A stretch of DNA of 14,262 nucleotides from a virus. Lineage: Duplodnaviria; Heunggongvirae; Uroviricota; Caudoviricetes. Under the pieces are notes generated by a model. The model was not told where the DNA came from. It ran no database searches and worked only from the letters and a program-made list of their open reading frames with translations. The stretch spans positions 1 to 14,262 of IMG/VR virus record IMGVR_UViG_2695420747_000011. One strand, 5' to 3'. Position 1 is the stretch's first letter; each line of letters opens with the position of its first letter. Positions 7,816-8,490 of the stretch are shown here, piece after piece. The position numbers were made by a program, and so were the translations under genes.

Positions 7816-8490
7816 ATGAAAAACACTATCAGCGAACGTATTCGGAATCGTCGAAAAGACGTTGGATTAACCCAACAGCAGGTTGCGAAAGCAATCGGCA
7901 TATCTCGTGTATCCGTAACAAAATGGGAAAATGGCTCTTCAAAACCTGACGGTGAGAATTTGTATCTACTGTCAAAATTGCTTTCCAAATCTCCTGAATG
8001 GATTCTTTATGGAAAGGACGGTCACGATAAAGCCGATGATCTGCGTCTGAATCAGTACCCTTACATTAGTGACAACATCGCCCGGTTGCCCGTTTTAACG
8101 TGGGAACAGGCTGGTTATTGGGATATGAGTTGTCCAGTAACCGAGATTCCTGGTATTAAGAATTGGGTTGATGTCATGACAAAAACCGCTGAAAACTCTT
8201 TTTTATTGCATGTTGAGGGAGATGCGATGACAAACTCTAACGGCCTCCCAACCATCCCCGACGGATCTACCGTGCTGATCACACCATGCTCAAGTAACAT
8301 TAGAGAACTGGTGGGAAAAATAATCTTAATCCAATTGGAAGGAACGCCAAACGTAACACTAAAAAAAGTTGCGATTGACGGACCAAACATCTATCTGTTG
8401 TCACTGAATCCGCTTTACAAACCCATCGAACTTAATGGTGGTTACACCATTAAAGGTAAAGTTTCACAAATACATCAATACTTAGACTGA
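7816..8490 (+). CDS. cI: CI-like prophage repressor (N-terminal HTH_XRE + C-terminal S24/LexA-like peptidase domain; catalytic Ser position is Ala)
   Basis: HTH VGLTQQQVAKAIGISRVSVTKWENG. The C-terminal domain aligns by eye with lambda cI: HVEGDAMT against VEGNSMT, and VTLKKVAIDG against FTFKKLIRDSG. An Ala-Gly (EQAGYW) sits in the linker. Start set at ATG 7816 because the track start 7717 would put both operators inside the coding sequence; no SD is evident upstream of 7816. Confidence 0.8.
   Translation: MKNTISERIRNRRKDVGLTQQQVAKAIGISRVSVTKWENGSSKPDGENLYLLSKLLSKSPEWILYGKDGHDKADDLRLNQYPYISDNIARLPVLTWEQAGYWDMSCPVTEIPGIKNWVDVMTKTAENSFLLHVEGDAMTNSNGLPTIPDGSTVLITPCSSNIRELVGKIILIQLEGTPNVTLKKVAIDGPNIYLLSLNPLYKPIELNGGYTIKGKVSQIHQYLD

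Follow-up and report, generated by a model that had tools for sequence, protein, structure and literature searches.

A natural CI-type prophage repressor of Escherichia coli with alanine at the S24 nucleophile position, predicted not to cleave itself

A prophage repressor of the 'LexA family', with a helix-turn-helix (HTH) domain followed by an S24 domain, is by standard assumption SOS-inducible. In the autoproteolytic CI repressors lambda cI, P22 c2 and 434 cI (MEROPS family S24), the two domains come with an Ala-Gly site, a Lys and a G-[DE]-x-M motif, and the repressor gene stands in a locus with a divergent cro gene, right (OR) and left (OL) operators and a terminator after cI. The C-terminal domain of lambda cI also carries dimerisation and cooperativity, and lambda has three operator sites at each of OR and OL. 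Among the CI clades I to VII of Stx phages, all those with an S24 domain have kept the Ser (PMC8951638). CI-like repressors that are not proteolytic are already well known. The repressor is not inactivated by self-cleavage in the systems N15 CB/AntC, 186 CI/Tum and P22 Ant and in the Vibrio linear plasmid-phages, and a survey of linear-plasmid-phages counted 210 of 271 cI proteins without predicted catalytic sites (PMC10432266). DicA of Qin, RacR of Rac and GfoR/GtgR of Gifsy are non-cleavable as well, being proteins of about 135-158 amino acids in which the S24 domain is absent, and for the Gifsy repressors LexA-controlled antirepressors have been identified (PMC3121763). The subject of this study is the CI-type immunity repressor gene (positions 7816 to 8490, plus strand, 224 amino acids) in a 14,262-nucleotide stretch of viral DNA, IMG/VR record IMGVR_UViG_2695420747_000011 (Caudoviricetes), here called the window. 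It codes for a full S24 domain under selection in which Ser alone is replaced, unlike the short repressors of the DicA/RacR/GfoR family, and the replacement by Ala is the same change as in the laboratory mutants LexA S119A and cI S149A. What is new is that such a Ser-to-Ala S24 pseudo-peptidase repressor is natural, selected, recurrent and common in E. coli; I found no description in the literature of the window repressor or of any CI in which Ser is naturally replaced by Ala.

The position of the Ser nucleophile is taken by Ala137 (Ala151 in the numbering of a 238-amino-acid form), encoded by gcg at 8224 to 8226 within the run GTT GAG GGA GAT GCG ATG (8212-8229), which reads V-E-G-D-A-M. In the phmmer alignment, 'lhvegdamtnsng' lies opposite 'levegnsmtaptg' of lambda cI with the Ala facing Ser149, while 'weqagyw' pairs with 'hvqagmf' (Ala111-Gly112), as does 'tlkkv' with 'tfkkl' (Lys192). 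The scissile-site equivalent is accordingly Ala99-Gly100 (gct ggt, 8110 to 8115), matching A111-G112 of lambda cI and A84-G85 of LexA, and the general-base equivalent is Lys183 (aaa, 8362 to 8364), which matches K192 of lambda cI and K156 of LexA and stands in an invariant column. In a MAFFT alignment of the repressor, lambda cI, E. coli LexA and 105 distant cluster representatives, verified against the known positions S149/K192 (cI) and S119/K156 (LexA), the three proteins read EGDAMT, EGNSMT and SGMSM at the nucleophile, AG in each case at the cleavage site, and LKKV, FKKL and VKRL around the Lys. The original prediction, made from the letters of the window alone, had claimed exactly this combination of an Ala at the serine position with the Lys and a linker Ala-Gly in place, and every alignment bears it out; it was also right that the codon is a single base from Ser, a T-to-G change, the sister alleles having TCA or TCG. 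The profile alignment that it proposed as a check covers positions 1-115 of the 116 of Peptidase_S24. Another Ser opposite S119/S149 is ruled out, since Ala takes this place in three independent alignments and in the fold match.

The repressor thus has the fold, the Lys and the Ala-Gly site of an S24 autopeptidase and lacks the Ser of G-x-S-M, so that, judged by its residues, it would belong with the non-peptidase homologues of S24 and not with the active members. Because LexA S119A is the standard non-cleavable LexA, although it retains binding to RecA* (PMC3159453), no self-cleavage is expected of the repressor, and the analogy argues strongly that both RecA*-stimulated and alkaline self-cleavage would be abolished. 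DNA damage probably cannot switch this repressor off by the textbook route.

The protein is of the lambda cI/LexA type, as had been proposed. Its HTH_3 domain (7840 to 8004, plus strand; Pfam residues 23-77 of the 238-residue form, E 3.8e-17) is DicA / P22 c2-like: P22 c2 matches it at E 1.5e-12 in a phmmer search against PDB chains, and the NCBIfam model of DicA reaches 79.4 bits (2e-22) against a cutoff of 101, with only the N-terminal domain matched. The S24 (LexA/cI/UmuD) fold domain (Pfam PF00717, E 1.1e-16) extends from 8089 to 8463 on the plus strand, corresponding to residues 106-230 of the 238-residue form. Full-length lambda cI (3bdn_A, E 4.8e-14) is the best phmmer match among all PDB chains. 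An AlphaFold model of the repressor (predicted local distance difference test, pLDDT, 83.4) was compared with known structures by Foldseek, and its top matches are again lambda cI, both full length and C-terminal domain, with template modelling (TM) scores of 0.76-0.81 on the target; the N-terminal domain of P22 c2 gives a TM of 0.96, and LexA structures are also among the matches, including PDB entries of S-to-A LexA. With an HTH domain, an S24 fold, a divergent cro/YdaT gene pair, operators and a terminator, the gene is a true CI-type repressor gene, and this anatomy, together with purifying selection, suggests that its product provides immunity and holds the lytic promoters in check in vivo.

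The Ala is a widespread character. Of the 5426 complete E. coli genomes compared, 683 contain the 61 nucleotides centred on the codon, with an identical sequence, gcg included, in 681; one of the two non-identical genomes was inspected and differs elsewhere, still coding for GDAM. Members of the repressor clade are present in about 701 of the complete genomes, at least 681 of which (about 13% of the 5426) have the gcg 61-mer, ST131 being among the carriers, and Ala is found in 80 of the 80 closest IMG/VR loci. A sequencing error or a private mutation is ruled out by these counts and by the cluster-wide presence of Ala. It could still be argued that the change to Ala arose recently as an inactivating mutation in a decaying cryptic prophage and has no functional meaning: a single T-to-G change is all that is needed, and some carriers do show decay, such as tail-fibre and DUF977 pseudogenes in the prophage of E. 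coli AF39 and insertion sequences within recE in two other loci (L116, L119). However, the near-identity of the site across genomes speaks against this, as do the many carrier prophages whose modules for head, tail, lysis and integration are complete, and the intact operators described below. The prophage of AF39, a 100%-identical reference, is about 50 kb long, lies at ompW and encodes terminase, head, tail and lysis functions, with a few pseudogenes. The first 200 nucleotides of the window have no exact match in this otherwise near-identical prophage (L001), and a 300-amino-acid open reading frame containing DUF551 (2152-3054, minus strand), intact in the window, is broken into pseudogene fragments there (L001 14653-15555); the window was thus not derived from AF39 itself.

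The history of the residue argues further against recent decay. From a collection of 5.8 billion proteins, the close clade comprises five clusters at 90% identity. The cluster of the window (499 member sequences at 98-100% identity, from E. coli and E. albertii) has GDAM with GCG; P0002 (E. coli, 89% identical to the window repressor) has GDAM with GCG; P0003 (E. coli, 88%) has GDSM with TCA; P0005 (Salmonella, 70%) has GDAM with GCA; and P0006 (66%) has GDSM with TCG. The window cluster, P0003 and P0005 were inspected member by member, and each listed member agrees with its representative. A profile search for intermediates gave no clusters of 60-90% identity beyond these five. The comparison of orthologues, which the original prediction had put forward as a check, therefore finds Ala recurrent in three lineages, by the different codons GCG and GCA, and Ser in the sisters P0003 and P0006. 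A neighbour-joining tree rooted with a Ser outgroup has the form ((((window, P0002), P0003), P0005), P0006), and since it interleaves Ala and Ser lineages, at least two changes between Ser and Ala, in either direction, are needed, their exact number being uncertain with five lineages and likely recombination. The Ser-type sisters P0003 and P0006 share with the window the length of the protein, the operators, the cro/YdaT neighbours and a left operon of the DUF1391-dicB type. They differ in GDSM (TCA or TCG), are presumably cleavable and are far rarer: the Ser type is found in about 8 of the roughly 701 genomes, as opposed to at least 681 with the Ala type, with a median of one copy per genome. 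One of the roughly eight, strain ST130, was examined and has GDSM/TCA.

Further away, Ser is found in all more distant homologues except one degenerate Arsenophonus copy (P0015), in which the motif and the AG site are lost. Ser, AG and Lys occur together in 108 of 121 representatives of homologue clusters. At 50% clustering, 105 full-length representatives with HTH and S24 domains divide into 90 with Ser and 15 without, 4 of the latter having Ala, and the non-Ser representatives mostly lack the AG site too; among the sampled representatives, replacement of the nucleophile alone with AG and Lys intact appears restricted to the clade of the window. Homologues from insect symbionts (P0237-P0242, Arsenophonus / Symbiopectobacterium, about 50% identity), noted together with P0015 and L014, have kept Ser and Lys and have IS, LS or VS in place of AG, which may be a different route to a non-cleavable repressor. 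A truncated allele of E. coli (P0009, 132 amino acids) lacks the S24 domain and is 87% identical over the N-terminal 58%; being about the size of DicA (135 amino acids), it hints at a possible origin of short DicA/RacR-type repressors from S24-bearing ones.

When the two Ala lineages of E. coli are compared, their C-terminal domain shows 0.038 nonsynonymous (dN) and 0.72 synonymous (dS) substitutions per site, a dN/dS of 0.05; Ser-Ala comparisons give 0.06-0.08, and the ratio of the Ala-Ala pair is thus the same as that of the Ser-Ala pairs. The linker evolves fast (dN/dS 0.3-0.9). A dN/dS of 0.05 at a dS of 0.72 between Ala lineages indicates that the Ala state is old and the S24 domain functionally constrained. 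With this constraint and the recurrence of Ala by different codons, the view that the residue reflects decay or artefact is effectively refuted.

The operator palindrome GTAAC-N4-GTTAC is present in three exact copies in the whole window, all at OR or OL; by estimate, about 0.03 copies would be expected by chance. On the cro side of OR, GTAACAATAGTTAC (7754 to 7767) is an exact palindrome and overlaps the spacer and the -10 region of a promoter, PR, presumed from the sequence at this place. On the cI side of OR, GTAACATTGGTTAC (7802 to 7815) ends one base before the ATG at 7816. The third copy, GTAACTCTTGTTAC (8565 to 8578), marks OL, a short way past the terminator of cI, and lies between a conserved -35 hexamer TTGACT and a -10-like TACCTT, upstream of the ydfA-dicF-dicB-ydfD operon; both hexamers are read from the sequence, and a consensus promoter scan did not call them. 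In comparison with lambda, the operators are thus 14-bp palindromes, two exact ones at OR and one at OL. They are kept in all five related lineages and are identical in Ser and Ala lineages, and because of this identity Ser-type and Ala-type relatives are probably homoimmune.

The reading I favour, with a probability of roughly 60%, is that of a naturally non-cleavable, ind-like CI repressor that is maintained by selection, uses its C-terminal domain for oligomerisation and leaves the prophage SOS-blind at the level of the repressor. The HTH domain would bind the three operators, two between cI and cro and one at OL ahead of the ydfA-dicF-dicB-ydfD-recE-xis-int operon, and would thus shut off both early operons. 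The S24 fold would be complete and catalytically dead, as the nucleophilic Ser is Ala, with no self-cleavage in the presence or absence of RecA*, and would be kept for dimerisation and cooperative binding. The prophage would then resemble one with a natural version of a lambda ind- allele, and derepression would have to come by another route, such as stochastic switching or a further factor. The Ala would be an ancient trait of this immunity type, kept by selection. The lambda ind- allele is dominant. By analogy, the Ala repressor probably provides SOS-proof immunity, in which a co-resident or incoming Ser-type phage would be kept repressed during SOS.

It had been predicted that such a repressor locks the prophage in, and this does not agree with the distribution of the carriers. 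The identical 238-residue protein is found at at least four sites (ompW, yccA, mtfA and the side of the pot operon) with three or four different integrases, and Ala has persisted over a dS of about 0.7. Among the 80 IMG/VR loci, the integrase of the window is shared by 11 of 44, its replication gene by 30 of 71 and its nin region by 3 of 53, while cI and cro are at least 99% identical and the flanks vary. Pairwise comparisons of prophages show mosaic blocks of 83-99% identity. Either the phages remain infectious, or recombination carries the immunity module from one prophage to another. The carriers form a successful, recombining phage lineage and not a dead end.

How such a lineage could be induced was examined by searching for antirepressors and LexA boxes. 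Induction through an antirepressor had been offered in the original prediction as the alternative to a locked prophage, and the search lent it no support. A comparison of 10 small open reading frames of the window with PHROGs gave only families of unknown function and no antirepressor; no ANT, Bro-N, KilA or P22_AR family (Pfam) was present within 10 kb on either side in 10 genomic contexts; and the RefSeq annotation of the whole AF39 prophage lists no antirepressor. Unlike for the Gifsy repressors and the N15, 186, P22 and Vibrio systems, these searches identified neither a partner antirepressor nor a small-ORF module for induction, and the window clade differs from such non-proteolytic CI-like repressors in that AG and Lys are kept and Ser alone toggles. 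LexA boxes were sought with a CTG-N10-CAG pattern and, as a rough screen, a position weight matrix trained on about 21 boxes of E. coli; in the window no site rose above the range of shuffled sequences, the maximum being 14.7 and the 95th percentile of the shuffled scores 16.2. The two best candidates, TGCTGGCAATGAATACAGCA at the start codon of ydfD (10192-10211, score 14.7) and GGCTGTTTTCAGATACAGCT inside an open reading frame at 8915-9265 (9069-9088, score 10.8), are within the shuffled range and probably due to chance. Outside the window, in the AF39 prophage (L001 10899-10918), a strong LexA-box-like site, CACTGTAAAAATATCCAGTT, scores 21.6, the median of the training boxes being 20.6. It lies directly after the start codon of an N6/N4 DNA methyltransferase gene downstream of Q, which suggests that the methyltransferase gene or late-region transcription may be under SOS control, independent of the repressor.

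These results bear on the possibility that the repressor is non-cleavable and the prophage is nevertheless SOS-inducible, through a LexA-controlled antirepressor of the same or a co-resident prophage, as in Gifsy, 186, N15 and P22. This I consider unlikely, though it has several points in its favour: the N-terminal domain is DicA-like, and DicA is a member, with RacR, of the GfoR/GtgR family, for which control by LexA-regulated and partly trans-acting antirepressors has been shown or proposed (PMC3121763), the phage lineage is evidently mobile, and the same prophage does contain the strong site just described. However, that sole strong box stands at the start of the methyltransferase gene with no small open reading frame adjoining it, and the searches above gave neither a known antirepressor family in the window and its surroundings nor a LexA box above chance in the window. 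Homology often fails to reveal small antirepressors, and they can act in trans (PMC3121763).

Several considerations weigh against a repressor that is simply non-cleavable and structural. Some route of derepression must exist, given the identical protein at no fewer than four attachment sites in mosaic prophages, and a trans-acting antirepressor from another prophage, for which there is a precedent (Lemire 2011, PMC3121763), is possible. In the literature I found no biochemical or induction data on the window repressor. None of 50,697 sequenced phage records reaches 60% identity to the repressor; as this absence of isolated phages holds for the Ser-type sister too, it is weak evidence for non-inducibility, and I dropped it as proof. 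Neither the AG site nor the Lys varies in any of the Ala lineages, despite their deep divergence. This invariance is not obviously needed for oligomerisation and is unexpected if the function is purely structural.

The conservation of AG and Lys raises the idea that they are still in use, either for cleavage in trans by a Ser-bearing S24 partner, for instance a homoimmune repressor of the Ser type or some other S24 protein, or for the titration of uncut repressor by RecA*. I rate this as improbable. In its favour, all three Ala lineages have kept AG and Lys unchanged although synonymous divergence is saturated, Ser-type and Ala-type repressors have common operators and 92% identity in the C-terminal domain, and intermolecular cleavage by the C-terminal domains of LexA and cI was reportedly established by Kim and Little in 1993. 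Titration is favoured by the RecA* binding that LexA S119A keeps (PMC3159453). On the other hand, with the Ser type in so few genomes and a median of one copy, a cognate trans-protease would usually be absent; both trans-cleavage and titration are speculative; and the cleavage-site region packs against the domain core, so that structural constraint alone may explain the conservation of AG. In its most definite version, a long shot, the protein would be a substrate-only or RecA*-binding-only repressor, whose AG loop and Lys dock on RecA* or on a Ser-bearing homoimmune partner, with lineages toggling between TCN and GCN. If this were true, SOS would be sensed by stoichiometric sequestration or trans-cleavage instead of self-cleavage, a new mode of repressor inactivation, and the one-base toggle between TCN and GCN would be a recurring natural switch of lifestyle, SOS-sensitive in one state and SOS-buffered in the other.

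The repressor is probably translated from the ATG at 7816, and its RefSeq annotation is probably incorrect at the 5' end. The open reading frame spans 7717-8490 on the plus strand, and RefSeq starts the protein at the ATG at 7774 (238 amino acids, WP_000103686.1, 'LexA family protein'). Three observations from the sequence favour 7816 as the real start (224 amino acids): the 14 extra codons (7774-7815) cover the operator at 7802-7815, homologues of about 45% identity begin at the equivalent of 7816, and the remainder of the annotated N-terminal extension outside 'NIGY' is poorly conserved. The conserved 'NIGY' is itself the translation of the operator at 7802-7815. With this start the repressor would probably be translated from a near-leaderless message, likewise as in lambda cI.

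The window covers the early region of a Qin/Rac-type lambdoid prophage, and its backbone is of the same kind as in the DicA, RacR and GfoR/GtgR prophages, with YdaS/YdaT in the roles of cro and cII, ydfA, dicF, dicB, ydfD and recE. After the repressor gene follows an intrinsic terminator (8494 to 8524, plus strand) with a 10-bp stem and a U tract (-15.1 kcal/mol, z = -4.2). On the minus strand, divergent from the repressor, lie the cro-like gene of the P22_Cro / YdaS type (7509 to 7724; RefSeq 'Cro/CI family', Pfam P22_Cro in all contexts) and a gene of the YdaT family (7087 to 7512; RefSeq annotation, Pfam YdaT_toxin), which is the functional equivalent of CII according to PMC9986795. Further outward are a replication gene, nin-region open reading frames, hokD/sok and DUF968 and, outside the window, RusA and Q. 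Past the repressor, the plus strand carries DUF1391 (ydfA), the DicF small RNA (9789 to 9840; Rfam DicF, 76.7 bits) upstream of dicB (10015 to 10203; RefSeq dicB), ydfD (10200 to 10391; RefSeq DUF1482), a recE-like exonuclease gene, xis and int. The cargo of the Qin type is thus complete in this prophage, with hokD/sok, DicF, dicB and ydfD. The repressor had been predicted to keep hok, dicB and ydfD silent. Of these, dicB and ydfD are indeed downstream of OL, as is dicF; hokD (about 1705 to 1860, minus strand) lies on the PR side together with a sok antisense RNA of its own (Rfam, 117 bits; hokD/sok region 1705-2030), and hok is controlled by sok and not by the window repressor. The non-coding leader between OL and DUF1391 (8583-8700) recurs with 91-97% identity in 3555 of the 5426 complete E. 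coli genomes, far more than carry the window repressor, and K-12 derivatives are among them. As a structured RNA this leader is ruled out, since its fold does not stand out from shuffled sequences (z = 0.19) and Rfam gives no match.

DNA-damaging antibiotics induce the prophages of E. coli and so cause lysis, the release of toxins and the transfer of genes, and by standard assumption SOS-inducibility is read from the domains of the repressor. About one in eight complete E. coli genomes, those of the pandemic ST131 included, carries a natural counterpart of S119A/S149A, and SOS-inducible prophages are therefore overcalled when annotation stops at the level of domains; the catalytic dyad needs to be checked residue by residue. 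The Ser and Ala sisters with their identical operators form a clean natural system in which to ask what a non-cleavable repressor offers to phage or host. Candidate benefits are stability under antibiotic stress, a dominant SOS-proof immunity, and the silencing of dicB and dicF. The conserved cleavage loop and Lys also raise trans-cleavage or titration by RecA*, and the finding would gain most if this loop turned out to be functional.

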